IMG/VR virus record: IMGVR_UViG_2529292886_000008
Length of the DNA stretch: 30,609 nucleotides
From: a virus
Taxonomy: Duplodnaviria; Heunggongvirae; Uroviricota; Caudoviricetes
Direction: 5' to 3' (one strand)
A model generated the notes under the pieces. That model was not told the origin of the DNA. It saw only the letters and a program-made list of their open reading frames with translations, and made no database searches. Of the stretch, positions 5,811 to 30,609 are shown in pieces (position 1 is the stretch's first letter; every line of letters begins with the position of its first letter). Made by a program: the position numbers and the translations under genes.

Positions 5811-8633
5811 ATGACGGCAGAGTACATCAGGGACTGGCAACAACCGCGCCACGCAGTGGGGCGTGAAGGAACGGGGATCCCCGCTCCTGAATCCGCGCTT
5901 TCCTCCTGGCTGGATGCCTACCGGGTAGAGAACGAGCGCCGCCAGGAAATGGCTGATGCGGCGTTCTCCGCAACGCCGCTGGGCAACCTGATTAATAAAA
6001 GCCTGGACGCACAGGAAAAACAGGACAAAACCATCACACTGGCAGGAGACGCCAGAAAACAGGCACGCGGTGCGGTGGATGAAGCCATGGCCTCGCTGCG
6101 CCTGCTGCCGTCCTATCTGCGCGATCCGCTTATTCGCCACCTCTCCTTCCTGCGCAAAAAACAGGAAGCCGATCGTCAGAAAGGCAAAAAGAGCTGGCAG
6201 GCTGAACGCTACGCGCGCGGAAACCTGCGCAAAATATTCGAACGTCTGGAGCGCACCGATCACCGCTGGCTGACACAGGGTTATCGCTCCCTTGCCGGAC
6301 GCGAACGCCTGGACGATTTGCTTTACCTGCCGCAGCTCAACAAACACCAGATACAGACGCTGGCCACCATGACGGCGGCGATGTTCAGCAGCACCTTCGA
6401 AAAACTCTGCGATGGCTTTGGCGCGACCGATGGCGAACTGACCATGGATGTAACGCTGAAGGCGTATCAGATGCTGGCCCGCATGGCGTTACACCTGCAC
6501 GCCATGCCTCCACATTATGACGCACTGACAACAGACAAAGACCGGAGGAACGAACCGGACACGGAGCTGCTGCCGGGCGCAATCCTTCGCCTGACCTGTG
6601 CGGAATGGTGGAAACGCAAACTGTGGCTGTTACGTTGCGAGTGGAGAGAAGAACAACTCCGCGCCGCCTGTCTGGTTTCCAGAAAAACATCGCCCTATCT
6701 GAGCCAGGACGCGTTAAGCGAGTTTCGCGCACAGCGCGAGAAAACACGCGATTTCCTGAAAAGTTTCATGCTGGAAAACGAAGACGGGTTCACGATTGAT
6801 CTCGAGACAGTGTATTACGCGGGAGTAAGTAACCCGGTTCACCGTAAGGCAGAAATGATGGCCACCATGAAGGGGCTGGAACTTCTGGCCGAAGCCCGTG
6901 GCGACAAAGCGGTGTTTCTGACTGTCACCTGCCCGTCAAAATACCACGCTACAACAGAGAACGGTCATCCGAATCCCAAATGGAACGGGGCCACCATGCG
7001 CGACTCCAGCGATTACCTGGTTAACACGTTTTTTGCGGCGGTCCGCAAGAAACTGAACCGCGACGGCCTGCGCTGGTATGGCATCCGCACGGTGGAGCCT
7101 CACCATGACGGCACCGTGCACTGGCATATGATGGTCTTTGCTCATCCGGAAGAAATCGACACCATTGTGTCCCACACCCGCGATATTGCCATTCAGGAAG
7201 ATCGTCACGAGCTGGGCGATGATATTACTCCGCGCTTTAAGGCGGAGTATGTCGACGGCTCAAAAGGCACGCCAACCAGCTACATCGCCACCTACATCGG
7301 AAAAAACCTGGACAGCCGCGCCGTGGATGGCATCGACCCGAAAACAGGCAAACCACGCGTTGACCACGAAACCGGAAAATCAATGACCGAGAGCGTGGAA
7401 CGCGCCATTGGCTGGGCGCGCCTTCACCGGGTCCGCCAGTTCCAGTTCTTTGGCATCCCCTCCCGTCAGGTGTGGCGTGAACTGCGTCGCCTTGCCAGCC
7501 AGATGGCACGCAACCCGGAAGGCCCGCAACGGCTGAAGGATGACGCAATGGATGCGGTTCTTGCTGCCGCTGATGCCGGATGTTTTGCCACCTACATTGA
7601 GAAACAGGGAGGCGTACTTGTTCCACGCAAGGACTACCTGATTCGCACCGCCTACGACCTCGCAGATGAGCTGAACGATTACGGCGAACAGAGCGTACAG
7701 ATTTACGGGATCTGGTCACCACTCATCGGGGAATCCTCCCGTGTGTGCACGCACCCGGATAACTGGAAGCTGGTAAGACGTAAACCGGGAGTAGAAGACA
7801 GCGCCCGCGAAAATGGTTTTGACCTTCAGGGCGGCCCTGCCGCCCCTTGGACTCGTGGCAATAACTGTCCCCGTGTACAGGAAACGGACAACAACGGGAC
7901 AGAACAGCCGGAAGAACGGCCAGCACCGTGGCCGCAGCTTCCTGACGGCGTTGACGTGAACGAATGGATGCGCTCACTGAAACGGCACGAACGCCGGGCG
8001 CTGATGCGTTCGCTTCGTGACAAACAGGCAAAAAACAGCAGTGATGAAATGCAGAGCTGGACACAGAGCCGCAAACAGCAGCGGCCTTTGCCTGATAACC
8101 ACGAATTACTCGCTAAAGAATGGCGGGAGTCTGCTGAATCTCTCGGCCTGCATATCGGTGAACAACAGATGCAGCACCTGTTACGGGGCGGCAGTCTGTA
8201 CGTTGACGGCAGCATCATTGCACCGCAGGGATTTGAAATTGTACGCAAACCGGATACCCGCCCGGACAGCCGAATCACGCAGCTCTGGCAGCGCCTGAGC
8301 CGTAATCATGGCGTAAGCAGCACGGAGATCCGCCATAACCCGGTCGCCAGCTATCTGGCACAGCTGGGGGCATCAGACCCTGAAGCCGCCGCACGCCTGG
8401 CATCCACACTTCAGCAGGACCAGAACACCATGAAAACACCCGTTACCGTGCTTTCTGACATGCTGCGCGCCATCCGCGACGCAGAGCACGCACAGAGAAT
8501 CAGTGAAACCACTGAACGCGCCAGCCGCAAAGCAGACCTGCTGCGGGGTGGCCTGACCAGTGGAAACAAAAAACAGACAGAAACGGGACTCACAAATCCC
8601 GTAAATGAGCAAAAAACGCGCCGCGATATATGA
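5811..8633 (+). CDS. A: Rolling-circle replication initiator endonuclease (P2 gpA / phage_GPA family), 940 aa
   Basis: HUH-like motif TVHWHMMVF and paired catalytic tyrosines in TSYIATYIGKN. Large size and position at end of early operon. Long charged C-terminal extension. Confidence 0.85.
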   Translation: MTAEYIRDWQQPRHAVGREGTGIPAPESALSSWLDAYRVENERRQEMADAAFSATPLGNLINKSLDAQEKQDKTITLAGDARKQARGAVDEAMASLRLLPSYLRDPLIRHLSFLRKKQEADRQKGKKSWQAERYARGNLRKIFERLERTDHRWLTQGYRSLAGRERLDDLLYLPQLNKHQIQTLATMTAAMFSSTFEKLCDGFGATDGELTMDVTLKAYQMLARMALHLHAMPPHYDALTTDKDRRNEPDTELLPGAILRLTCAEWWKRKLWLLRCEWREEQLRAACLVSRKTSPYLSQDALSEFRAQREKTRDFLKSFMLENEDGFTIDLETVYYAGVSNPVHRKAEMMATMKGLELLAEARGDKAVFLTVTCPSKYHATTENGHPNPKWNGATMRDSSDYLVNTFFAAVRKKLNRDGLRWYGIRTVEPHHDGTVHWHMMVFAHPEEIDTIVSHTRDIAIQEDRHELGDDITPRFKAEYVDGSKGTPTSYIATYIGKNLDSRAVDGIDPKTGKPRVDHETGKSMTESVERAIGWARLHRVRQFQFFGIPSRQVWRELRRLASQMARNPEGPQRLKDDAMDAVLAAADAGCFATYIEKQGGVLVPRKDYLIRTAYDLADELNDYGEQSVQIYGIWSPLIGESSRVCTHPDNWKLVRRKPGVEDSARENGFDLQGGPAAPWTRGNNCPRVQETDNNGTEQPEERPAPWPQLPDGVDVNEWMRSLKRHERRALMRSLRDKQAKNSSDEMQSWTQSRKQQRPLPDNHELLAKEWRESAESLGLHIGEQQMQHLLRGGSLYVDGSIIAPQGFEIVRKPDTRPDSRITQLWQRLSRNHGVSSTEIRHNPVASYLAQLGASDPEAAARLASTLQQDQNTMKTPVTVLSDMLRAIRDAEHAQRISETTERASRKADLLRGGLTSGNKKQTETGLTNPVNEQKTRRDI

Positions 8634-8674
8634 AGCGCGCACAAAACAGGCAAAAGCGGGATTTAAAAATCCTG
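8583..8674. promoter_or_regulatory. Inverted repeats upstream of parM; candidate ParR operator / centromere-like site
   Basis: ACGGGA-N8-TCCCGT at 8583-8602 and GGATTT-AA-AAATCC at 8659-8672, the second just upstream of the parM RBS (AGGA near 8699). The first lies inside the 3' end of gene A. Confidence 0.3.
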
Positions 8675-8709
8675 TAACCGATTAATTAATCAACATAAGG
8701 AAAAGCGAC

Positions 8710-9669
8710 ATGAAAATTTGTATCGACGACGGCTCCACCAACATCAAGCTGGCATGGACTGAGAACGGCGAACGCCGCAACGCCATCAGCCCGAACAGCT
8801 TCAAGTCGGAATGGTCTGCGCCATTCGGTGGCACGCAGCCCGCGAACTACATGCTTGATGGCGTGCGCTATAGTTTTGATCCGGTCAGCGATCGCTTTGT
8901 CCAGACGACCGACACGCAATACCAGTACAGCGATGTGAATGTAATTGCCATTCATCACGCGCTGGTCAAATCAGGCATCACACCACAGGAAGTGGATGTG
9001 GTTGTCACCCTGCCACTGAGCGAGTATTTCGATACAAACGCACAGCCGGACATGGCCAACATCAACCGCAAAAAAGCGAACGTCATGCGCCCGGTGGAGT
9101 ACCAGAACGGCGAAGCATTCACTATCCGTAACGTACGGGTTATGCCTGAATCCATTCCTGCTGGCTTTAAGGCACTGGCTGACATGAGTCCGTTTGAATC
9201 CCTGCTGATTGTGGATTTGGGCGGAACCACGCTGGATGTGGCAAAGGTTCAGGGGCAACTGGCAGGTATCAGCCAGGTGTTTTGCGATCCACACGTAGGC
9301 GTTTCTCTGATGGCCGATGCCGTACTGTCGGTGATGGCCACTAACGGTATGCGCACCAGTCACCACATCGCCAATACCATTATCGAACATCGCCATGATG
9401 AAGCCTGGCTGCGCCAGCACATCCACAATGACGCGCATTACGCCAGCCTGATGGCGGTTATTCGTGAAAAGGAAGAAACACTGAAACAACGCGTGATCCG
9501 CGCGCTGGCGGTTTTTTCGGGTTACGGGCGGGTGATGGTTGTCGGTGGCGGGGCGGAGATTGTGGCAACCGCTATCCGCGAAGCCTGCGGAGTTAATGCG
9601 ACTTTCATCGCGGACGGGGTGCCACAGTTTGCTCTGGTTAATGGGTTGTACGCAATGAACAAGGAGTAA
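8710..9669 (+). CDS. parM: Actin-like segregation ATPase ParM/StbA
   Basis: Phosphate-1 motif ICIDDGSTNIK, phosphate-2 LIVDLGGTTLDV, adenosine motif VMVVGGGAEIV. Overall pattern closely matches plasmid R1 ParM as remembered. Confidence 0.85.
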   Translation: MKICIDDGSTNIKLAWTENGERRNAISPNSFKSEWSAPFGGTQPANYMLDGVRYSFDPVSDRFVQTTDTQYQYSDVNVIAIHHALVKSGITPQEVDVVVTLPLSEYFDTNAQPDMANINRKKANVMRPVEYQNGEAFTIRNVRVMPESIPAGFKALADMSPFESLLIVDLGGTTLDVAKVQGQLAGISQVFCDPHVGVSLMADAVLSVMATNGMRTSHHIANTIIEHRHDEAWLRQHIHNDAHYASLMAVIREKEETLKQRVIRALAVFSGYGRVMVVGGGAEIVATAIREACGVNATFIADGVPQFALVNGLYAMNKE

Positions 9670-9673
9670 ACCA

Positions 9674-9988
9674 ATGACGACACCAACCAGACGGATAAGT
9701 TTCTATCTGAAGCCCGCCGCCGTCAAGAGTGAACAGGAGGCGTGCAATTACCTCGATAGCCTGCCAGCCTCCGAACGCAGCCGCGCGCAACGCGCGGCCT
9801 TTCTGGCTGGGCTAGCACTCATAAAGCGCAACCCAGCATTTGCCTACTGGATGGCCGAATGGCCAGAGGACAACCTCCCCTTCAATACCGTTAGCATCAA
9901 GGAAACATACCAGGCTAATCAGCCTAGCGGAGTTGAATGCAATTTTTATAAAATAAAAAAGAATATTCAGACCTTATTCCCAGAATAA
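9674..9988 (+). CDS. parR: Partition adaptor / repressor ParR (StbB-like)
   Basis: Immediately downstream of parM; segment RISFYLKPAAV..CNYLDSLPASERSRAQRAAFLAGLAL matches ParR N-terminal ribbon-helix-helix region from memory. Confidence 0.7.
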   Translation: MTTPTRRISFYLKPAAVKSEQEACNYLDSLPASERSRAQRAAFLAGLALIKRNPAFAYWMAEWPEDNLPFNTVSIKETYQANQPSGVECNFYKIKKNIQTLFPE

Positions 9989-10037
9989 TCTGATAATTGT
10001 ATGTGAACTAATAAAATACATACCAACACATCATTCT

Positions 10038-10059
10038 GGCACCCTTGCAACAGGGTGCC
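10038..10059. terminator. Hairpin between convergent parR and membrane-protein operon (possible bidirectional terminator)
   Basis: Perfect 8-bp stem GGCACCCT / AGGGTGCC with 6-nt loop; no strong U-run on either side. Confidence 0.4.
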
Positions 10060-10070
10060 AATGTTTCAAA

Positions 10071-10913
10071 TCATGATGAAATTGCCGAAGTTTTTTTATC
10101 GTGCTGAAGTACCGCAAATGCCATTAAAACCTCAAGAGAATAGCGGCGATAATACTTAACAAAACCATAATAAAATACTCGGGATGCAGCAAGACAAAAC
10201 AAGAGAAGAAAACAAAAAGGTAACAGCCTGATATTTATATCTATTAAAAAGGATAGAGGGAACAGACATATAAGCAACCAGACTGAAGCGAGAAAAACAA
10301 ATGTAATGTTTCTACAAAAACCATACAAAGCAACATAGTTTTGCATTTTCACCTGATGATTTTTAGAATGCTCATACACATAATGATAAGCAAGGCGAAA
10401 AAGATCGCCCCTCAAGCCCTTACGTCGATATAGCGTAGATACAGAAAAAACATTTATATAACCATCTCGTATTTGCGGCCAAAAGACTTTAATAAGTATA
10501 GAATGCAGTGTGGTTTTATGATGTTCTGCTTTATCAAAAACTGATACAGGAAGTAGAAAAACTCCACGAATAAAATGAACTATACTGAACTTAGTATTAT
10601 GTCGTTTTATTTTCAGGGGACTTCTTTTAGAAAACAGATAAATTGAAGGATACCCAAGTTTACTGTTCATATATTTTTCAATTAAACAGGATGATAGAAT
10701 AGATATGAAGTGACCTGAAATATATGACAGAACAATTAATACCACATATATAAACACACTTATTATTTCTTTATATTTCAGGATGTGGTTAAAAACACCT
10801 TCTATATAAACAGGGTTAATTTCAATAGAAAACAAAAAAAGGATAAACAGGAATAACCCACCTGGAATTAGATAGCCCAAAAAGTCATAAAATGAAAACG
10901 GATTCTGTGTCAC
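10071..10913 (-). CDS. Multi-pass inner-membrane protein (280 aa), uncharacterised; distal gene of candidate cargo module
   Basis: Long ORF in strongly AT-rich DNA, where random long ORFs are unlikely. About 4-5 hydrophobic helices. Start overlaps the stop of the upstream gene. Confidence 0.7.
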   Translation of the reverse strand: MTQNPFSFYDFLGYLIPGGLFLFILFLFSIEINPVYIEGVFNHILKYKEIISVFIYVVLIVLSYISGHFISILSSCLIEKYMNSKLGYPSIYLFSKRSPLKIKRHNTKFSIVHFIRGVFLLPVSVFDKAEHHKTTLHSILIKVFWPQIRDGYINVFSVSTLYRRKGLRGDLFRLAYHYVYEHSKNHQVKMQNYVALYGFCRNITFVFLASVWLLICLFPLSFLIDINIRLLPFCFLLLFCLAASRVFYYGFVKYYRRYSLEVLMAFAVLQHDKKTSAISS

Positions 10914-11449
10914 ACTTCCCCCTGTGTTACTTGTAAATTAAAGGGTAAAACATTATTTGTTTTCCGTAAAGGATTAGCTTTCCATCTTCTTACTAACCAT
11001 TCGAATTCTTGATATGTAGTATCCGAATTAATGCTTTCTCTGATTGCTTTAATTAATGGCTCGGCAATATCATATGTCTCTACAACTGTTGTGTAAGATG
11101 TTCTTTTTATCATTTTTTCATCATAAATACCTTCACGAATACTTACAGCAACTCGCTCGTAAAAATTTAAAATATATTGAAATTTTCGACGCTCGGCCAT
11201 TTCCTCATCTGTTATTGTACAACCATCACAAGGAAAAACATAAGAACGAAATGATTTGCCTGAACGATGCACTTGTTTCAGGGTATGCAATGACTCTATA
11301 TATTGCATATCTTGCCGACTCTCAAAAAGAAAGTTAGCCGTTTGAGTTTTCTTTGCGGTACGCACATTGTAGATAATGGTTCCAATGGCAACCAAAACGC
11401 CAAGCAGAACAATAGCATTGCTGATGATTTGTAGTGTTATTGGGTTCAT
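10910..11449 (-). CDS. Single-pass N-terminally anchored membrane protein (179 aa), uncharacterised; proximal gene of candidate cargo module
   Basis: N-terminal TM helix (ITLQIISNAIVLLGVLVAIGTIIY) followed by soluble domain with paired Cys (FPCDGC). AT-rich; overlaps downstream gene by 4 nt. Confidence 0.7.
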   Translation of the reverse strand: MNPITLQIISNAIVLLGVLVAIGTIIYNVRTAKKTQTANFLFESRQDMQYIESLHTLKQVHRSGKSFRSYVFPCDGCTITDEEMAERRKFQYILNFYERVAVSIREGIYDEKMIKRTSYTTVVETYDIAEPLIKAIRESINSDTTYQEFEWLVRRWKANPLRKTNNVLPFNLQVTQGEV

Positions 11450-11463
11450 CCTATTTCATCCAT

Positions 11464-11490
11464 AAAAAAGGCGGGGAGCAAATCCCCGCC
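11464..11490 (-). terminator. Rho-independent terminator for leftward transcription, abutting start of cargo operon
   Basis: 8-bp GC stem GGCGGGGA / TCCCCGCC with GCAAA loop, followed on the minus strand by a T6 run (plus-strand AAAAAA at 11464-11469). Confidence 0.5.
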
Positions 11491-11639
11491 TCATTAGAGG
11501 TCAACGTAGCTTAGAAACCATCAAATTCATCATACATTTTTTTCATATCAACCCCCTCATAGAAATCATAACCACGTTTTGTGGTTTTTGTGACGCATAA
11601 ACTACATCAAAGGCAAGCTACGGTCAAATATATGGGCAT

Positions 11640-11810
11640 GCTTACCTGCACAAAAGTGCACAAATTTGCACAATTTTTTTGAACGACTTTTTGCCCTTCC
11701 GGCCCGCGTGGCGGCTGGATCCGTCAGGGATCCGTGCGTGCACAAAAAAACGCGTTTTTTCTGCGCGCAGGTGACGGGGGAACAGCCCGCGTTTCAGGGG
11801 GTAAATAGCA
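11640..11810. other. Probable cos / packaging-site region (by synteny), repeat-rich
   Basis: Non-coding block downstream of portal gene as in P2. Three TGCACAA copies at ~10-11 bp spacing (11646-11680), GGATCCGT direct repeat (11718-11737), perfect palindrome AAAAAACGCGTTTTTT near 11747-11762. Exact cohesive-end sequence not verified. Confidence 0.3.
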
Positions 11811-12046
11811 TTCCATGAACGATGTCGCAGCGACACAACAGAATGGCTGTATTTCTCACACTGAGCGTGAAAAAGACGTGAGGGCTTTTGATTTGATGGG
11901 GTGACAGATAAGGCAGTCAAAATCGCACTGAGGCGGCAAGAACATGCAGTCAACGCGGTGGGATTGCGTAAGAGCCTGATCGTCGATGATGGCGATAAGC
12001 TGGAAGACGTCGTGAAATTATCTGATTGATACAGGAGCTGGAGAGT

Positions 12047-12071
12047 CGGGGCATAAATTTTTTATGCCCCG
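12047..12071 (-). terminator. Stem-loop downstream of portal gene (terminator candidate for leftward P-Q operon)
   Basis: CGGGGCATAAA / TTTATGCCCCG 11-bp inverted repeat around a T-rich loop, about 27 nt after the Q stop. Confidence 0.4.
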
Positions 12072-12097
12072 GCGAAGCAGCAGACAAGCGAAGCGCG

Positions 12098-13144
12098 TCA
12101 GGATGTGGGCTGGGTGTCTAACAGTGCGTAAGGGTTAAAGCGGATCACCTCTTCGCCAAGCCAGTCATTGATGTGCTTCATGGCCTCCATGACGGGCATC
12201 AGCTCGTTAATTGCGTAAACCCGCGCGGCCTTCTCCACATCACCAAACGCACTTTTTTCGCCCGGCATCGCCCCCATCAGTTGCGGCGGAACGCGGTGCG
12301 CAGCCAGCACATCATCACGGGATGCCGCCTTAACATTCATGAACTCATCCTTTGCGGTGATCTGCTGGAACGGCAAAATTTGCACACCTTCTTTGCCCCC
12401 GTTGGGCGCATGGATGAGCACGTTTTTAAACGCACCACCACCACGCGCGCCCTGTAACGTTTCTTTCAGGGAGTCCATGCTTTCGCGGTTTACCTGCGCT
12501 GCACCAATGTAGATGATGCACCCGGCGTGGGATCCGTTGTCGTAGTACAGTTTTCTGAACATGTCCGCCGAATGAGAAAGGCTGGCCGAGAGTAATGCGC
12601 CAAGATATTCCGGCATGCCGTAGATTTCCTGGTTAATATCCGGATTCATCAGATGGCACACTTTACTAGGGCGAAACTGAAACGCGTCCTTGCCATCCTG
12701 CACATACCACCATGATTCAAGATCGCTTCCGCGTCGCATGTATTTCGCCAGGGCGTGCCGTAATTTAAGCGGTTCGCCGAGCATATTGCTTCGAAGCTCA
12801 AGGAATGCGTTACCGAACACAAACCAGTCCAGCGCCAGCGCCGAGAAATCCTGCCGGGAAAGCAGCGGGTGCGGGATGTAGCAACCGAGTAATACATTGC
12901 GCTTAAAGTAAAGCGCAGACTGATGCCAGGACGTTTGCCGGGCAGCTCTTGCCAGACCGTACCAGTCCACCGGGGTTTCATACCACCGCCCGTTATCAGC
13001 ACAGTACATGTTGTCCAGCAGGTCATGCCCGGTCAGGCGATAAGGACCATCAAATGTGAATGCACTGAGCGATGATTCTTTCCTGAGCGCATCAGCGAGA
13101 TCAATGCGTGAACTCATGCGTACTTTTTTATTTTTTCTGCTCAT
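12098..13144 (-). CDS. Q: Portal protein (P2 gpQ-like)
   Basis: 348 aa, size and position adjacent to terminase as in P2; overlapping stop/start with gene P. Confidence 0.85.
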   Translation of the reverse strand: MSRKNKKVRMSSRIDLADALRKESSLSAFTFDGPYRLTGHDLLDNMYCADNGRWYETPVDWYGLARAARQTSWHQSALYFKRNVLLGCYIPHPLLSRQDFSALALDWFVFGNAFLELRSNMLGEPLKLRHALAKYMRRGSDLESWWYVQDGKDAFQFRPSKVCHLMNPDINQEIYGMPEYLGALLSASLSHSADMFRKLYYDNGSHAGCIIYIGAAQVNRESMDSLKETLQGARGGGAFKNVLIHAPNGGKEGVQILPFQQITAKDEFMNVKAASRDDVLAAHRVPPQLMGAMPGEKSAFGDVEKAARVYAINELMPVMEAMKHINDWLGEEVIRFNPYALLDTQPTS

Positions 13145-18606: not shown

Positions 18607-18849
18607 GTGAGCACCATTCAAACAGGGATCACAGAGCAGGTTATTGCGTGGCTCTTTGACCACCTGCCAACGGTGTATGCAGTAGGCGCGGCGGTCAGCA
18701 TTTCCGCGCTGATGAGTCTTTATGACGGACGAACACTGGTTCAGACCGTAACGGGATCGCTGGCGTGCGGCGTTCTTGCCATGGCCGTGGCCGGGTCGTT
18801 GCGCTTCTTCGGGTTTCCTGAAGATGCCGTGACGTTTATCGGCGCATAA
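18607..18849 (+). CDS. Putative holin (P2 gpY position)
   Basis: GTG start with GGGGGA RBS 7 nt upstream; 80 aa with two hydrophobic helices; position preceding endolysin. Confidence 0.55.
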   Translation: MSTIQTGITEQVIAWLFDHLPTVYAVGAAVSISALMSLYDGRTLVQTVTGSLACGVLAMAVAGSLRFFGFPEDAVTFIGA

Positions 18850-18926
18850 ATCGGTTTTATGGGTGCAGAGAAAGCACGCGACAAGGTTATTGCGGCCTTT
18901 AATCGCAGGGTGAAGGAGAAGGACGA

Positions 18927-19319
18927 ATGAGCAACACATTTAAATTCAGCAGCCGGAGCGAAAAGAATTTGCAGGGCGTAAATCCTGATCTGGTGAAAGT
19001 GACCCGACGGGCACTGGAAATCTCGGAAGTGGATTTTGGTATCACCGAAGGGTTGCGCAGCCGTTACCGCCAGAAGCAACTTGTGGCCACGGGTAAGAGC
19101 CAGACCATGAACAGCCGCCACCTTACGGGGCATGCCGTGGATGTTGTGGCTTATATCGGCAGCCAGGTGTCATGGGAATGGCCGCTGTACGAAAAAATCG
19201 CAGCAGCATTCAGACAGGCCAGCCGGGAACTGAATATTCCGGTGGAATGGGGCGGCGACTGGAAGACCCTGAAAGACGGACCGCATTTTCAGTTACCGCA
19301 CGGAGTTTATCCGGCATGA
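18927..19319 (+). CDS. Endolysin, peptidase M15-type L-alanyl-D-glutamate endopeptidase
   Basis: Motifs SRHLTGHAVDV and DGPHFQL typical of M15 zinc peptidase endolysins; replaces the lysozyme-type gpK of P2. Confidence 0.75.
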   Translation: MSNTFKFSSRSEKNLQGVNPDLVKVTRRALEISEVDFGITEGLRSRYRQKQLVATGKSQTMNSRHLTGHAVDVVAYIGSQVSWEWPLYEKIAAAFRQASRELNIPVEWGGDWKTLKDGPHFQLPHGVYPA

Positions 19320-23306: not shown

Positions 23307-25466
23307 ATGAGTACCACAACACGAAAATTTAAAACCATTATCACTGATACTGGTGCCAAAAAATTAGCTCAGGCAGCCGCGCCAGATGGTAATCCTGTCC
23401 GCCTGACTCACATGGCCGTGGGCGACGGTGGCGGCACGTTGCCCACACCAGACAGTAAGCAGACCCGTCTGGTGCATGAGGTGTGGCGACATACTGTTAA
23501 TCGCGTCATCCTGGACGCAACACATCAGAACCGCATTATTGCGGAGCTGGTTATTCCTCCTGAAACGGGCGGATTCTGGATCCGGGAAATTGGTGTATTT
23601 GATGAGCACGGCGATTTGATCGCGGTGGGCAATACTGCCGAAAGTTACAAACCAACCGTTGCCGAAGGATCCGGACGTGCACAAACATTTCGCACCATTC
23701 TGACCGTATCCAGCACTGCCACCGTGGCGCTTACCGTGGATAACACCATGGTTATGGCCACAGTGGATTACGTGAATGACAAACTGAAAGAACATGAACA
23801 GTCACGACGTCACCCGGACGCCTCGCTGACCGCAAAAGGCTTTGTTCAACTCAGTAGCGCCACCAACAGCACGTCTGAAGCACTGGCCGCAACGCCGAAA
23901 GCGGTCAAGGCAGCCTATGACCTTGCTATCGGGAAATATACCGCACAGGACGCCACTACAGCGCGGAAAGGACTTGTCCAGCTCAGTAGCGCCACCAACA
24001 GCGATTCAGAAACGCTGGCGGCAACACCAAAGGCGGTAAAGGCAACATATGACCTTGCTAACGGGAAATATACTGCGCAGGATGCCACCACAGCGCGGAA
24101 AGGCCTTGTCCAGCTCAGTAGCGCCACCAACAGCACGTCTGAAGCACTGGCCGCAACACCGAAAGCGGTAAAGACAGCATATGACCTTGCTAACGGGAAA
24201 TATACCGCTCAGGACGCTACGACAGCACAAAAAGGGATTGTCCAGCTAAGCAGCGCGACTAACAGCGCATCTGAAACGCTTGCTGCGACATCGAAAGCAG
24301 TGAAAGCAGCTAATGACAATGCGAATGGTCGGGTACCTTCTGCCCGTAAGGTGAATGGTAAGGCGCTTTCAGCGGATATAACACTGACACCGAAAGATAT
24401 TGGTACGCTTAACTCAACAACTATGTCATTCAGCGGTGGTGCTGGTTGGTTCAAATTAGCAACGGTAACCATGCCGCAGGCGAGTTCTGTTGTTTCAATT
24501 ACGTTGATTGGTGGGGCTGGATATAACGTCGGTTCACCTCAACAGGCAGGTATATCTGAACTTGTTTTGCGTGCAGGTAATGGTAATCCGAAGGGGATTA
24601 CTGGTGCTTTATGGCAGCGCACATCGGCAGGGTTTACAAATTTTGCCTGGGTCAATACATCTGGTGATACTTACGATATTTACGTTGCAATCGGAAATTA
24701 TGCGACTGGTGTAAATATTCAATGGGATTATACCAGTAACGCCAGCGTAACGATTCATACTTCACCAGCATATTCTGCTAATAAGCCGGAAGGATTAACG
24801 GACGGTTCTGTTTATTCGCTGTATATTTCGCCTCATGAACTTTATCCGGTTGGCGCACCGATCCCTTGGCCATCAGATACCGTTCCGTCTGGTTATGCCC
24901 TGATGCAGGGGCAGACTTTTGACAAATCTGCATACCCGAAACTTGCAGCCGCTTATCCGTCAGGCGTGATCCCTGATATGCGTGGCTGGACGATTAAGGG
25001 CAAGCCCGCCAGTGGTCGTGCCGTATTGTCTCAGGAACAGGACGGCATTAAATCGCACACCCACAGCGCCAGCGTATCCAGTACGGATTTGGGTACGAAA
25101 ACCACATCGTCGTTTGATTACGGGACGAAAACAACCTCACTATTTGACTATGGGACCAAAACTACCAGTAACGCCGGGAGTCACACGCATTCAATACCAA
25201 CATCAGATGGTGCAAACCAGGGGGGGAAAATTCCACTGACATCTGGGCGTCTGGCAACTCAATATACATCAGCAACAACAGGTTCCTCTGGCTCACATTC
25301 TCATACTGTAGGTATTGGTTCTCATCAGCACACTGTCGGTATTGGTGCACACACGCACTCGGTTGCGATTGGCTCACATGGACACACCATCACCGTTAAC
25401 GCTGCTGGTAACGCGGAAAACACCGTCAAAAACATCGCATTTAACTATATTGTGAGGCTTGCATGA
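23307..25466 (+). CDS. H: Tail fibre protein (P2 gpH-like) with internal fibre repeats and HxH-rich C-terminal tip
   Basis: N-terminus [25 protein letters not shown] typical of gpH; C-terminal [11 protein letters not shown]; four 44-aa repeats; HxH motifs near C-terminus. Confidence 0.9.
23838..24340 (+). repeat. In-frame tandem repeat, about 3.8 copies of a 132-bp unit, inside tail fibre gene H
   Basis: Repeat starts at 23838, 23970, 24102, 24234, encoding G(F/L/I)[33 protein letters not shown](R/Q)K. Confidence 0.85.
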
Positions 25467-26365
25467 TTACGCTCATTCTTTCTGCACCAGTAACAGAAAT
25501 GGCTGAAGCATTTAAGCGGGTATTTGCAAACGCAGATAATGTGAATATTGTCGGAAAGCCATTTGAAACAATCAGAGAATTTGACTGTATGGTAAGTGCG
25601 GCAAATAGTTTCGGCCTGATGGATGGCGGTGTTGATGCCGCCATTACCGCATTCTTCGGTACTCAGTTACAGTCCCGCGTTCAGAATCATATTCTTCGTG
25701 AATATCTAGGCGAGCAGCCTGTAGGATCTGCGTTTGTTATTGAAACGGGGCATAATCATCACCCCTGGCTGGTACATGCGCCAACAATGCGTGTTCCGCT
25801 GACAATTGACGGAACAGACGCTGTATATAACGCAACCTGGGCCGCTCTGCTTGCCATCTTTCAGCACAATAAAAACGCAACGACAGACAGGAAAATAAAG
25901 ACGGTGGTATTCCCTGCGATGGGGGCTGGATGTGGTCAGGTACCGTTTGAAAGTGTTGCCCGCCAGATGAAGCAGGCCTGGGATAACTTTAATAAAAAAA
26001 CAGAATCAATTAACTGGGAATACGCACAATCCCGCCAGTCGGCAGTATTTGGCACATATGCATACTGTCCGGGTAATTCTGTTTGCCGTTATGCGGATGC
26101 TAAATATATTGGATGCGGCGATTATCGGACGTATTGCTCACGTTCCGGGCAGGTCTGTATTAACCCTGAACATCAGGCTGATGATGTACTGATACAACAT
26201 CAGGCTAATAACCGGTTTCGCCCTGATTCGCATATACACCGGATTAATCCAGAAAATCCCGTAGGTAATGTCACCTCTGGCGCACATAGCCACAGAAGTA
26301 GCATCGTTATTGGTGCTCACACCCATACGCTCAATAAACAATATTCTGTCTCTGATATTAAGTAG
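25463..26365 (+). CDS. Macro-domain (ADP-ribose binding/processing) protein with Cys-rich and HxH-containing C-terminal region
   Basis: Macro motifs [18 protein letters not shown] and [15 protein letters not shown]-terminus [18 protein letters not shown] resembles HxH repeats in the upstream fibre tip; ATGA overlap with H stop. Confidence 0.75.
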
Positions 26366-26995: not shown

Positions 26996-27568
26996 CTATT
27001 TATACAATACAACACCACTCTTTTTAGTTATATATGTGCAGTTTGATGGTATATCTTTATTTATAAAAGACATTGCACCTATTTTTACATTATCCCCAAT
27101 TTTACGTGATAATCCAATGATGCAACAATTAGCTCCGATATCAACGTTACTACCAATTTTTACTCTTGAACTAGGCATATCACCATCTATCTGTCCAATG
27201 GTAGTATTCTGTCGTAATACCAGATTTTCACCCGCATCAACAGCAAAATGAACAACAATTCCAGCATGATGGGGAATTGTCAACCCTTTTCCAATATTTG
27301 CGCCCAATCCTATTTCACAACCAAACTTGTTAATTATTTTACTGTTTAACTTTTTGGCTGCTTTCTTATGTAATTTATTACCATTAATATACATTTCGTT
27401 AGCCAACCGCCACCAGAAAAGGAAATTCCGGTTACGCTGCTTTTTCTCTCTTAAAAGCCTCCAGATATCCATACGTTTCCGCCGAATTACTTCATGTTTC
27501 CAGAAGTTTTTTAAATTAGTAGAGTTTCCAAATAAAACAAAGTGAATTGCCATTAAGTAAGATAGCAC
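26996..27568 (-). CDS. Hexapeptide-repeat (left-handed beta-helix) acetyltransferase, CysE/WcaB-like; lysogenic-conversion-type cargo
   Basis: C-terminal hexapeptide repeats (GCEIGLGANIGKGL..IGSNVDIGANCCIIG..IGDNVKIGAMS). Strongly AT-rich. Preferred start is the GTG at 27566-27568 with a perfect AAGGAG 6 nt upstream; the open frame extends to 27601. Confidence 0.75.
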   Translation of the reverse strand: MLSYLMAIHFVLFGNSTNLKNFWKHEVIRRKRMDIWRLLREKKQRNRNFLFWWRLANEMYINGNKLHKKAAKKLNSKIINKFGCEIGLGANIGKGLTIPHHAGIVVHFAVDAGENLVLRQNTTIGQIDGDMPSSRVKIGSNVDIGANCCIIGLSRKIGDNVKIGAMSFINKDIPSNCTYITKKSGVVLYK

Positions 27569-28225: not shown

Positions 28226-30439
28226 TCAATCTTTATCGTAAAAACTGCCACGCCTGGCACGGGCGCGCCGTTCCATTTCTGCCCTGACCATTTCGCCGAC
28301 CAGTTTCGCCAGTTCGCGGGGATTCTGCGTAACAACGTTATGCAGATGAACATGAATTTCACCGCCAAATCCGGAGGCAACAGGCTCCCGGTTACGGGAA
28401 GTTGCAGGAACTGATGCCACTGGCGATCGTATGGCCTCCACCACCGGGCGGGAGCTGGCCGCAACAACAGGGACCAGCGCCGGAGGCAGCGGAGCCGGGA
28501 CCACGGGTGTGATATTAATTGCGGGGGCAGGCTTACTGACCTGCGCAATCTTCCGCTCCTGCCACTCCCCACGAACAGCAAGTGCGCGGGGCAGGTTCTT
28601 AAAGACAATATCGCCGGGGCCAATGCGTTTTTTTGTCTCATCAACCAGCTTACCTGTGTTATCAGCAATTTTGCTGAGTCTGCGTAGCGTGCCGGTATTG
28701 CTGTCTGTGAGAGGTTTGTTGTCTTTGGGTTTATCATCTCCGGTGCCATTGCTATTTCCCGCAGACTTCGGCGGATTGATTTTCGCAATGTCTCCCTGAA
28801 ACAGAGCAACCTTGTCCTGAAGAATGGCCGCACGTTGTGCGTCTTCGATTTTCTTGCGCGCCCTTTCCGCTTCATCCGGAAGCACACCGAGTTTTTCAAG
28901 TATCCACGCCAGCGTATCCAGCAACATTTTTGCAGGCGTCAGAACAAGCTGTAACGCACCACCAAGAACGTTACCGAATACCTCGCCAGCACTGGTACAT
29001 TTATCCAGCGTTTCCTTGCTGGACTCCATCGGTGACAGCAGCGATTTAAACCAGTTAAACACCTGGCTGATCCCGCTTCCGATTACGTCAAAAACAGGGC
29101 CAAACCGTTCAAAGGTGTCGCGCAACGGGGTCAGCCTTTCCATAATCCCGCTGAACACCCCGGCAAAGAAAGCCCTGATAGGATCCCAGTATTTCCAGAT
29201 AAGAACGGCAGCTCCGGCAAGCGCAGCCACGATAAGACCAACCGGACTGAACAACGCCCCGATAACGCCTCCCAGTAAAGAAACGGAACCCGTCACCATT
29301 CCCCATAGCGCAGGTAACACCCTGACGACATTCATTGACCGGGTAAGAATGTCAAAACCAAGACGCAGGGTGGCCAGCTTCCCGTAAAGCACCCCAATAA
29401 CCAGCGACAACGAGCCAATCGTTGCAGTCATTGCCAGCAACGCACCGCCTGCTATCAGTAGCTGGCGCGTCAGTACCGGATGGGCCTGCGCCAGCGAGGT
29501 GATTTTTTCAAGCACCCGCGTGAGCCACTGCGTGACAGAACGCAGCGGACCGTCAACCAGATCACTGATGCGAATACGAAGACCTTCCCATGCGCTGTCG
29601 AGATTTTTCAGGTCCCCATCAAGATTATCAGCCATTACTTTTGCGACGCGATCGGCCTCTCCCCTTGCCCCCTGCAATTCTCTGGTCAGTTTTTGCAGCT
29701 CTCCTGAACCAGCCGCCGCAACAAGCGTCTGCAAACCAACGAACGCCTCTTCTCCGGCGATGTCCTTGAAGAAGGAGACCTGGTCCACCTGTCCGTATTT
29801 TTGTGTCGCCTTATAGAGATCAAGCAGCACATCCTCCATCGGGCGCATTTTGCCTCTGGCGTCAGCAACTGACACCCCCAGCTCTTTCAGTGCATCAGCC
29901 GCAGCTTTTGGCGGTGATGCAAGGCGGGACAGACTTGCGCGCATGGCCGTGCCAGCATCGCTTCCGCGAAGACCATTATTGGCAAGCATCCCGGCCATGG
30001 CCGCCGCTTCTTCAAGACTGATACCAAGTTTTGCGGCAACCGGACCGGTATACTTCATGGTTTCGCCCAGCGCGCGTAAATCAGTATTGGTCCGGGTAAA
30101 TGCTGCTGTCAGCGTATCGCCCACCCGGTCCATTTGATCGGCTGTCAGGTTGAACTGTGTGAGGATATTGGAGCCTATATCAGCCGTCTCGCCGAGTTCG
30201 ACGCCACCTGCCAGCGCCATATTAAGAACACCGGGCAATGCGGCCTGAATGGCCTGCGGAGTAAAACCAGCCATTGCCAGAAAGCTCTGCCCACTGGCGG
30301 CATCACTCGCAGTAAACTGTGTTTCAGCAAGTTTTAACGCCTGCTCACGCAGCGCCTTAAACTGCGGGCTGTTTTTGTCGATTCGCGTCAGTGCCTGAAC
30401 GCGGGACATCTCTTTGCCGAACCCGATCGCAGGCTGCAA
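28226..30439 (-). CDS. T: Tail tape measure protein (P2 gpT-like); 5' end possibly beyond window edge
   Basis: 737 aa from the first in-frame start codon (TTG at 30439), helical and Ala/Gly-rich with hydrophobic central block. The frame stays open to position 30609, so the true start may lie upstream or outside the window. Confidence 0.8.
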   Translation of the reverse strand: MQPAIGFGKEMSRVQALTRIDKNSPQFKALREQALKLAETQFTASDAASGQSFLAMAGFTPQAIQAALPGVLNMALAGGVELGETADIGSNILTQFNLTADQMDRVGDTLTAAFTRTNTDLRALGETMKYTGPVAAKLGISLEEAAAMAGMLANNGLRGSDAGTAMRASLSRLASPPKAAADALKELGVSVADARGKMRPMEDVLLDLYKATQKYGQVDQVSFFKDIAGEEAFVGLQTLVAAAGSGELQKLTRELQGARGEADRVAKVMADNLDGDLKNLDSAWEGLRIRISDLVDGPLRSVTQWLTRVLEKITSLAQAHPVLTRQLLIAGGALLAMTATIGSLSLVIGVLYGKLATLRLGFDILTRSMNVVRVLPALWGMVTGSVSLLGGVIGALFSPVGLIVAALAGAAVLIWKYWDPIRAFFAGVFSGIMERLTPLRDTFERFGPVFDVIGSGISQVFNWFKSLLSPMESSKETLDKCTSAGEVFGNVLGGALQLVLTPAKMLLDTLAWILEKLGVLPDEAERARKKIEDAQRAAILQDKVALFQGDIAKINPPKSAGNSNGTGDDKPKDNKPLTDSNTGTLRRLSKIADNTGKLVDETKKRIGPGDIVFKNLPRALAVRGEWQERKIAQVSKPAPAINITPVVPAPLPPALVPVVAASSRPVVEAIRSPVASVPATSRNREPVASGFGGEIHVHLHNVVTQNPRELAKLVGEMVRAEMERRARARRGSFYDKD

Positions 30440-30609
30440 AAAACGCCCGGCAGCATAGCCGCCCGCCGCTGCCGCACCAATTGCCAGCGCACCACCTGTT
30501 TTCAGTTTTCCCGCGGTTTCCTGCGCGTGCGAATACTGAACCGCCCCGGAAATCCTGGAGACTAAACTCCCTGAGAAAGAGGTAAACAGGATGACTAAAA
30601 ATACTCGTT

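Follow-up and report, generated by a model that had tools for sequence, protein, structure and literature searches.

The 30,609-nucleotide (nt) stretch of DNA analysed here (IMG/VR record IMGVR_UViG_2529292886_000008; Duplodnaviria, Heunggongvirae, Uroviricota, Caudoviricetes), hereafter the window, is a P2-like prophage carrying an island of two leftward genes for membrane proteins. Protein 1, a member of Pfam family DUF4760, is encoded by an open reading frame (ORF) of 179 amino acids (aa) at 10910..11449(-), protein 2 by one of 280 aa at 10071..10913(-); both are intact, lie exactly where a first-pass annotation of the sequence had placed them, and share 4 nt (GTGA). The G+C content is 0.30-0.37 over positions 10001-11500, against 0.51-0.59 in the phage backbone on either side, in agreement with the AT-richness noted at first reading. 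Two findings are new here, the leader cassette that accompanies DUF4760 genes and the remote homology of the protein 2 family to the CRISPR accessory protein Csx27. Overall, the island would best be explained as a stack of two single-gene "moron" cassettes, each mobile by itself, that came to lie side by side at the gpA-gpQ hotspot in one P2-like lineage of E. coli.

Gene order along the prophage is integrase, early genes, replication endonuclease (gpA), ParM, ParR, the pair, portal, terminase, and capsid and tail genes: with parMR on one side and the portal gene on the other, the pair occupies the P2 gpA-to-gpQ (old/tin) hotspot, as the first-pass annotation had proposed. The plasmid-type ParM/ParR partition system, at 8710..9988(+), adjoins the island and is convergent to it. 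Over its full length, the window matches with 100% identity a prophage that E. coli O157:H7 PV15-279 carries beside yecA/tyrP, and the island was found in 350 of 5,426 complete E. coli genomes, every time on the chromosome. The P2 hotspot has been validated as a site of defence genes (PMC9122126, PMC9519451), and the view that the island is horizontally acquired cargo within it is supported.

Protein 1 matches the DUF4760 profile (PF15956) with an E-value of 1.4e-34 and 119.7 bits, against a cut-off of 25, over positions 2-141 of 141; it also matches phrog_2284, and its RefSeq name is DUF4760 domain-containing protein. The family of protein 2, which corresponds to phrog_12528, has no Pfam entry: it comprises 686 representative clusters (50% identity, E-value ≤1e-3), nearly all of about 270-300 aa, from Enterobacteriaceae, Pseudomonas, Thioalkalivibrio, Luteimonas, Thermodesulfobacteriota and metagenomes. 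No NCBIfam match was found for either protein.

Pairing of the two genes was counted with local hidden Markov models built from the two family alignments, a neighbour being, for the species-representative loci, a relative within 5 kb. In species-representative genomes of other species, none of 22 DUF4760 loci has a protein 2 relative at this distance. Among IMG/VR viral contigs, 7 of 71 protein 2 loci have a DUF4760 neighbour and 9 of 60 DUF4760 loci a protein 2 neighbour, and wherever viral loci are paired, their identity to the window is 95% or higher. At 20 other viral loci carrying P2 marker genes, DUF4760 is found without protein 2, and in P2-like prophages of Xenorhabdus, Kluyvera and Dryocola it sits alone in the same slot (in Xenorhabdus, between the portal gene and gpA). 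Other solitary DUF4760 relatives follow the ast operon in Rahnella, or lie in the Arc/Ant moron region of a Providencia siphophage. Similarly, protein 2 relatives of about 45% identity are found alone in lambdoid prophages, just upstream of xis/int, and one such solitary E. coli variant is present on more than 1,000 contigs. The pair is not an obligate two-gene module, as had been assumed at first reading; adjacency is limited to one E. coli P2 lineage, and the abundance of the pair in E. coli is the spread of that one phage lineage.

The first-pass annotation had also taken the two genes to be translationally coupled. Alignment of the DNA with four relatives, together with the annotation of PV468777, traces the 4-nt overlap to a 1-nt deletion, private to this lineage, in an A-run (A5 to A4; 10960..10963(-)), which removes the normal stop (...PLRKNK*), replaces the final 2 residues of protein 1 and extends it by 14. 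In the relatives, where DUF4760 proteins measure 165-167 aa, protein 1 stops at ...PLRKNK* (165 aa) and is followed by a 39-nt spacer holding the Shine-Dalgarno (SD) sequence of protein 2. No promoter is visible in this spacer, and a search for a conserved leader or upstream region in the protein 2 family found none; protein 2 is therefore probably co-transcribed behind DUF4760 in this phage.

These observations bear directly on the explanation by an obligate two-gene defence operon, in which one membrane protein would sense infection and the other would execute the response, their translation being coupled. The genes are indeed adjacent, co-oriented and probably co-transcribed, and the pair is abundant in E. 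coli P2-like prophages, with 1,102 loci in the catalogue of Rousset 2022 in addition to the 350 genomes counted here. However, co-occurrence is confined to a single near-clonal lineage, three other genera hold DUF4760 alone in the same slot, and the overlap is a private frameshift; we regard an obligate operon as very unlikely.

The pair itself is not new. It corresponds to system #3, "DUF4760", in Table S5B of Rousset et al. 2022 (Cell Host Microbe; PMC9122126), where it is recorded with 1,102 occurrences, "1 TM in protein 1, 4 TM in protein 2", and StbA/Plasmid_stab_B (ParMR) as usual neighbours; the genome of the window, NZ_AP018488, is among those listed, and the protein sequences of the entry, more than 95% identical to those of the window, are those of the same gene pair. 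This makes the pair the third most common occupant of the E. coli P2 defence hotspot. System #3 is a catalogue entry only, for which neither a function nor a test is given and in which the genes are not analysed one by one; it makes no mention of the leader ORF, of the predicted EP-like fold or of the link to Csx27, all described below. The tables of tested systems in the same work (S2A/B) contain neither protein sequence and no DUF4760 entry, so that, going by these tables, the pair was catalogued and yet stayed outside the systems tested. Hence the pair, put forward as an uncharacterised candidate at first reading, has no assigned function but had already been catalogued. Cargo of this kind, DUF or transmembrane (TM), is not mentioned in the main text of a 2026 preprint on the P2/P4 hotspots.

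Upstream of DUF4760 lies a compact cassette, which includes a short leader ORF left unannotated in RefSeq. It consists of an SD sequence, GAGGGGG, at 11558..11552, followed by the 11 codons of MKKMYDEFDGF* at 11546..11511 (11511..11558(-) in all). Of the loci compared, 20 of 26 from genomes and 48 of 60 from viruses have the leader ORF upstream of DUF4760. They represent P2-like, siphophage and chromosomal contexts, and some of them encode a DUF4760 protein that shares no more than 38-39% identity with that of the window. Its peptide has a variable N-terminus and a fixed C-terminal motif, DE[FY][DE]G[F/L/C]-stop, as in the variants MKKLFDEFDGF, MKKWFDEFDGF, MIKFIRDEFEGF, MSIHDEYEGF and MTFKRDDYEGF. 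The last six codons occur in 22 nucleotide versions, with differences confined almost entirely to synonymous third positions and with each of the three stop codons in use; such almost purely synonymous variation indicates that selection acts on the leader peptide.

Between the leader ORF and the DUF4760 start codon, the terminator scan identified a strong intrinsic terminator at 11462..11492(-), GAGGCGGGGA-TTTGC-TCCCCGCCTT followed by a T-run. Its hairpin, 11492..11468(-), has a 10-bp stem with 7 GC pairs and ends about 18 nt before the ATG of DUF4760. A hairpin occupies this position in 15 of the 18 intact loci; diverged members build it from different stems, and at 4 of 7 consensus pairs both sides have changed in a compensatory manner. 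A T-run follows in most loci, being weak or absent in Morganella, Providencia and loci L035 and L036. The conserved layout is therefore an SD sequence, the upstream ORF (uORF), usually 16-24 nt, a GC hairpin and the DUF4760 start. The first-pass annotation had read the terminator as insulating the pair from late transcription: the terminator is real, but it belongs, like the leader ORF, to the DUF4760 cassette, and both travel with DUF4760 outside P2.

Further upstream, a block with a -35 box TTGACC (11627..11622), a 17-nt spacer and a -10 box TAGTTT (11604..11599), at 11599..11627(-), is conserved in relatives as TTGAC(T/C), 17 nt, TA(A/G)TTT (14 loci aligned, from unrelated contexts), and from this conservation we infer that it is the promoter of the cassette. 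The consensus scan missed it because its -10 box matches the consensus at only 3 of 6 positions; the promoter proposed by the scan, GTCACA-18-TATGAT at 11594..11565, was dropped, since the conserved block lies at 11599..11627. In most relatives a palindrome, ATTACC-N5-GGTAAT, degenerate in the window, extends from the spacer into the -10 box, which suggests an operator for a dimeric repressor. A further hairpin in the 5' untranslated region (UTR), AACCAC-AAAAC-GTGGTT, at 11570..11586(-), lies between promoter and uORF and is also present in the Kluyvera P2-like locus. A scan of positions 9900-12150 against Rfam gave nothing significant, matches to caiA and SorX being far under the gathering scores, and no match to the DEFDGF-stop leader was found in the literature.

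A selected uORF followed by a conserved terminator has the layout of a leader-peptide attenuator, and we interpret the arrangement as putative regulation of this type. Known leader-peptide attenuators and arrest peptides, such as tnaC, ermCL, pyrL and speFL, likewise feature a short uORF with a strong SD sequence directly upstream of a terminator and a regulated gene, and in arrest and leader peptides, too, it is the amino acids just before the stop codon that are conserved. In contrast, DEFDGF-stop matches no motif of the described leaders and contains no run of a regulatory amino acid. An antiterminator formed by alternative pairing (ACCTC with GAGG) was considered, and is too weak to assert. 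A leader peptide acting in trans, as antidote or as ligand, would be equally compatible with the data.

The same anatomy could belong to an addiction module, similar to toxin-antitoxin (TA) loci, in which DUF4760 would be a membrane toxin restrained by the leader, either through attenuation or through an acidic micropeptide antidote acting in trans, and would stabilise the ParMR prophage. A layout of regulator, terminator and membrane protein should yield an excess of peptide over protein, the leader peptide is strongly selected, and orphan chromosomal copies, such as those of DUF4760, are typical of TA loci too. The island, moreover, directly adjoins parM/parR, so that the prophage might be maintained in a plasmid-like way and the adjoining membrane gene might serve addiction; in plasmid R1, parMRC is joined with the hok/sok membrane-toxin locus. 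On the other hand, ParMR is found in about a quarter of P2-like phages (Rousset 2022, PMC9122126), together with many different cargoes, DUF4760 also occurs in siphophage tail regions and at stable chromosomal sites lacking partition genes, and no known TA family was matched. On balance, we consider an addiction role unlikely.

The DUF4760 protein has one N-terminal TM segment, as noted at first reading, by hydropathy and in the AlphaFold2 model (predicted local distance difference test score, pLDDT, 88.3), which features a long N-terminal helix, containing the membrane anchor, and then a compact helical bundle. A cluster of lysine and arginine residues after the TM segment predicts that this all-alpha domain is cytoplasmic. 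The paired cysteines, to which the first-pass annotation had drawn attention, are present (C74 and C77); they are not conserved in homologues, and were thus rejected as a functional feature. In a Foldseek search with the model, seven EDS1 chains ranked at the top, with probabilities of 0.90-0.98 and template modelling scores of about 0.50, but with E-values of only 0.3-0.8; outside the EDS1 family, every match scored 0.27 or less.

The region concerned is the EP domain (PF18117) of the plant proteins EDS1, PAD4 and SAG101, which has been described as having no structural homologues outside its plant family (PMC6377607). Sequence identity to DUF4760 is 6-12% and the comparison rests on predicted structure. 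No match to PF18117 was found in protein 1 at E-values up to 1, and the PDB profile search with DUF4760 returned no EDS1-family chain at E-values up to 10, only chance matches. EDS1-family proteins carry a lipase-like N-terminal domain, where DUF4760 has a membrane anchor, and the cavity of the EP heterodimer is the receptor of ribosylated nucleotides made by TIR proteins, whereas no TIR gene lies near the sampled DUF4760 loci; neither TIR, cyclase nor other signal-generating genes were found among the sampled neighbours of divergent DUF4760 genes. Because of the weak E-values, the lack of a sequence signal and the lack of signal-producing neighbours, the resemblance is a lead and not a functional assignment. 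Literature searches for DUF4760, DEFDGF and bacterial EP-like domains gave nothing relevant, and no report of a bacterial EP-like domain was found. Comparison by hhalign of the DUF4760 profile with the single-TM partners of the RT-nitrilase+1TM and 2TM-1TM-TIR systems gave probabilities below 1%, that is, no relation.

Starting from this predicted fold, DUF4760 might be a prokaryotic or phage counterpart of the EP domain, namely a membrane-tethered receptor with a basic groove for a small acidic ligand, in which an exchange of ligand triggered by infection would lead to a membrane response. The ligand could be a nucleotide-derived signal or an acidic peptide ending in Phe, such as its own DEFDGF-COOH, which we take to resemble the acidic, Phe-ended C-terminal tails of SSB proteins. 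We offer this proposal as a speculative one, with little likelihood of being right; if true, it would provide the first EP-like domain outside plants and a new micropeptide-gated immune or toxin module, whose leader would found a new class of regulatory or antidote peptides. Real homology of the fold would also bear on the origin of the plant EDS1 hub, the EP domain of which is thought to be plant-specific.

Protein 2 (10071..10913(-)) is a 280-aa inner-membrane protein with a GTG start and the SD sequence GGGGGA. Hydropathy places its TM segments at about 8-32, 48-75, 198-224 and 230-252, and the AlphaFold2 model (pLDDT 85.1, predicted template modelling score 0.85) agrees on four, within the four to five anticipated at first reading. 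Motifs made up of residues invariant or nearly so in the family are QNPFSxYDFLGYxxPG at the N-terminus, GH in the second TM segment, GYPS, YH..E..H..K.QNYVAL.G..R, leading into the third TM segment, and KFYRR..LE after the fourth. By the positive-inside rule, the conserved polar motifs are all predicted to face the cytoplasm. The model has no specific fold match in the PDB, and a PDB profile search gave chance matches only.

A relationship emerged from the PADLOC model of Csx27 (PDLC01605), which matches protein 2 with an E-value of 4.1e-5, aligning residues 6-241 on positions 4-176 of 206. The match, weak for protein 2 alone, extends to 42 of 43 diverse family members, with a best E-value of 2.9e-8, while none of 10 reversed-sequence controls matched even at an E-value of 1; 17 members also match the related VI-B "tm_4" model. 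These results support a genuine remote homology between the protein 2 family and Csx27, an accessory membrane protein found in type VI-B1 CRISPR-Cas13b systems (Smargon 2017, Makarova 2019). Four TM helices are predicted in either case, four TM regions being reported for Csx27 (PMC7642515), and protein 2 is the longer, with 280 aa against a model of 206 positions. In contrast to Csx27, which accompanies cas13b and a CRISPR array, protein 2 is a stand-alone gene in prophage cargo slots or islets. The wider Csx27 family reportedly sits with DprA/ComF-like, ubiquitin-system or WYL genes. Neither these genes nor cas13b or a CRISPR array were found in the window or in the sampled protein 2 neighbourhoods, and protein 2 is consequently better described as a relative of Csx27 than as a Csx27.

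Both families behave as acquired genes. DUF4760 genes have a G+C content of 38-47%, against 42-61% in their flanks (at least 50% in 20 of 22 loci); for genes of the protein 2 family the mean is 31%, and for their flanks 48%. At every locus sampled, either gene is AT-rich with respect to its flanks. Solitary protein 2 genes adjoin genes for excisionase, integrase, repressor and RecT, and in some prophages they lie beside AIPR, PIN_8, AAA_13 and AAA_21 genes; distant members form orphan islets or are part of arrays of small ORFs on the same strand. Two such loci, L015 (Luteimonas, 1..12834) and L016 (1..12867), where protein 2 relatives are surrounded by small, mostly unannotated same-strand ORFs, look like integron cassette arrays. 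On viral contigs other than P2-like ones, DUF4760 is a moron among tail genes or Arc/Ant genes.

From these elements a two-cassette mechanism can be proposed. The first cassette is self-contained, with promoter, operator-like palindrome, short 5'UTR, leader ORF, terminator and DUF4760 gene; most of its transcripts would probably end at the terminator, and the DUF4760 membrane protein would be made only when events at the leader ORF permit read-through, by leader-peptide attenuation. The second is a stand-alone 4-TM protein of the Csx27 superfamily with a strongly conserved polar cluster on its predicted cytoplasmic face, lacking a promoter of its own here and probably transcribed behind DUF4760. 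The most plausible role for both proteins, working in the inner membrane of a lysogen, would be to counter phages that arrive: the phage genome would be kept from entering, or infection would be aborted through permeabilisation of the membrane. The slot, the neighbours and the base rates of hotspot screens make such a putative anti-phage or exclusion role plausible; in the 2026 preprint, 6 of 8 unknown loci of the P4 hotspot gave protection against phages. To the explanation as a whole, two independent cassettes with a leader-gated DUF4760 and a Csx27-like protein 2, acting in the lysogen against incoming phage, we assign about an even chance.

Several points weigh against it. No published phage test of either gene was found in the literature, and machine-learning scores in the same preprint call only 15-32% of unknown P2 proteins antiviral. 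P2 marker genes are present at only 4 of the 22 DUF4760 species loci; at the rest, the neighbours sampled have housekeeping functions (for example nrdB/yfaE, ast and cstA). The genes flanking DUF4760 are the same in related species of several genera, and no defence-island signal was seen among the top neighbour families listed for the 22 species genomes. That the genes should lie mostly outside mobile cargo slots is what the first-pass annotation had named as evidence against its own reading, and for DUF4760 this is in part what is found; the many chromosomal copies weaken the anti-phage case for this family. PADLOC v2 gave no match for protein 1. As to protein 2, Csx27 repressed, and did not enhance, Cas13b interference, and the deeply conserved polar residues of protein 2 are more suggestive of an enzyme or ligand site than of a fast-evolving exclusion protein. 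Finally, in most loci the uORF stop precedes the hairpin by 16-24 nt and does not overlap it, so that masking of the terminator by the ribosome, in a simple form, is not obviously workable.

Some of these points would also suit functions other than defence, DUF4760 being a conditional envelope or stress protein and protein 2 a membrane enzyme or channel with a cellular substrate, involved for example in the transport of DNA or single-stranded DNA (ssDNA). The shared flanks beside housekeeping genes would fit the former, and the invariance of His, Glu, Lys, Arg and Asn residues between only distantly related phyla the latter; the Csx27 family, as reported in PMC7642515 after Makarova et al. 2019, has been predicted to form ssDNA channels and tied to natural transformation. 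Against such functions, both genes are AT-rich islets at all loci found and show enrichment in the cargo slots of prophages. Searches of Pfam and NCBIfam matched neither a transporter nor an enzyme family, and protein 2 has no specific fold match; we find a non-defence role doubtful, and continue to prefer the two anti-phage cassettes.

Could the ORFs be spurious, or decaying in a dead prophage? The prophage is defective: the holin gene (18607..18930) is a pseudogene with an internal stop, the tape-measure gene (28226..30609 region) lacks its N-terminus and abuts IS1203, of the IS3 family, at the window end, and protein 1 carries a C-terminal frameshift. Yet both cargo ORFs are still open, the frameshift touches only the very end of protein 1, the AlphaFold2 models are confident, and the two families are large and conserved at full length (110 and more than 1,000 clusters). 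Decay is effectively refuted by this family-wide conservation.

Other features of the window deserve mention. Between the convergent parR and protein 2 genes, a GC-rich hairpin with an 8-bp stem (GGCACCCT-N6-AGGGTGCC; 10038..10059, either strand) was recognised by direct reading of the sequence; it may be a weak bidirectional terminator closing the island, missed by the terminator scan because it lacks a clean T-run. A second AT-rich patch (G+C content 0.354 at 501-1000) lies beside the integrase gene, where 544..1571(-) encodes a DUF2511 protein and a hypothetical protein of 216 aa, and may be a further cargo position. Between the tail-fibre gene and the tail-fibre assembly gene, 25463..26365(+) encodes a macro-domain protein (RefSeq WP_000631344.1), an ADP-ribose-binding or -hydrolysing domain unusual at this position. 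Between the tail-fibre assembly and tail genes, an AT-rich gene (G+C content about 0.35) at 26996..27568(-), annotated as serine O-acetyltransferase, lies roughly where we take P2 to carry fun/Z. The fun locus has been described as a second site enriched in defence genes (Vassallo 2022).

The separability of the two cassettes implies that each gene should be considered alone, DUF4760 together with its native leader. The DEFDGF leader and its terminator constitute, for an entire Pfam DUF, a regulatory or partner element that had not been described, and the stand-alone Csx27-like family offers, in E. coli, a tractable entry to the mechanism of Csx27-type membrane proteins.

Among defence systems, the PADLOC components compared (P2 Old/Tin, Kiwa, Zorya, PARIS, Gabija, retrons, RexAB and others) gave no match except Csx27 for protein 2. 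We presume that PADLOC covers the 21 systems reported by Vassallo and coworkers in 2022, which were not themselves compared by sequence. The first-pass annotation had recognised in neither protein a member of a named defence family, which holds for Old, Tin, Kiwa, Zorya, PARIS, retrons and Gabija; protein 1 does have a named family, DUF4760, and protein 2 is a remote relative of Csx27. The pair shares no sequence similarity with known exclusion or abortive-infection proteins, such as P2 Tin and Old, lambda RexB, P22 SieA and SieB, HK97 gp15 and the Csx28 pore. It resembles them in kind, these being likewise small membrane proteins of lysogens, encoded in cargo or moron slots, and it sits in the very slot which in P2 is occupied by tin and old.

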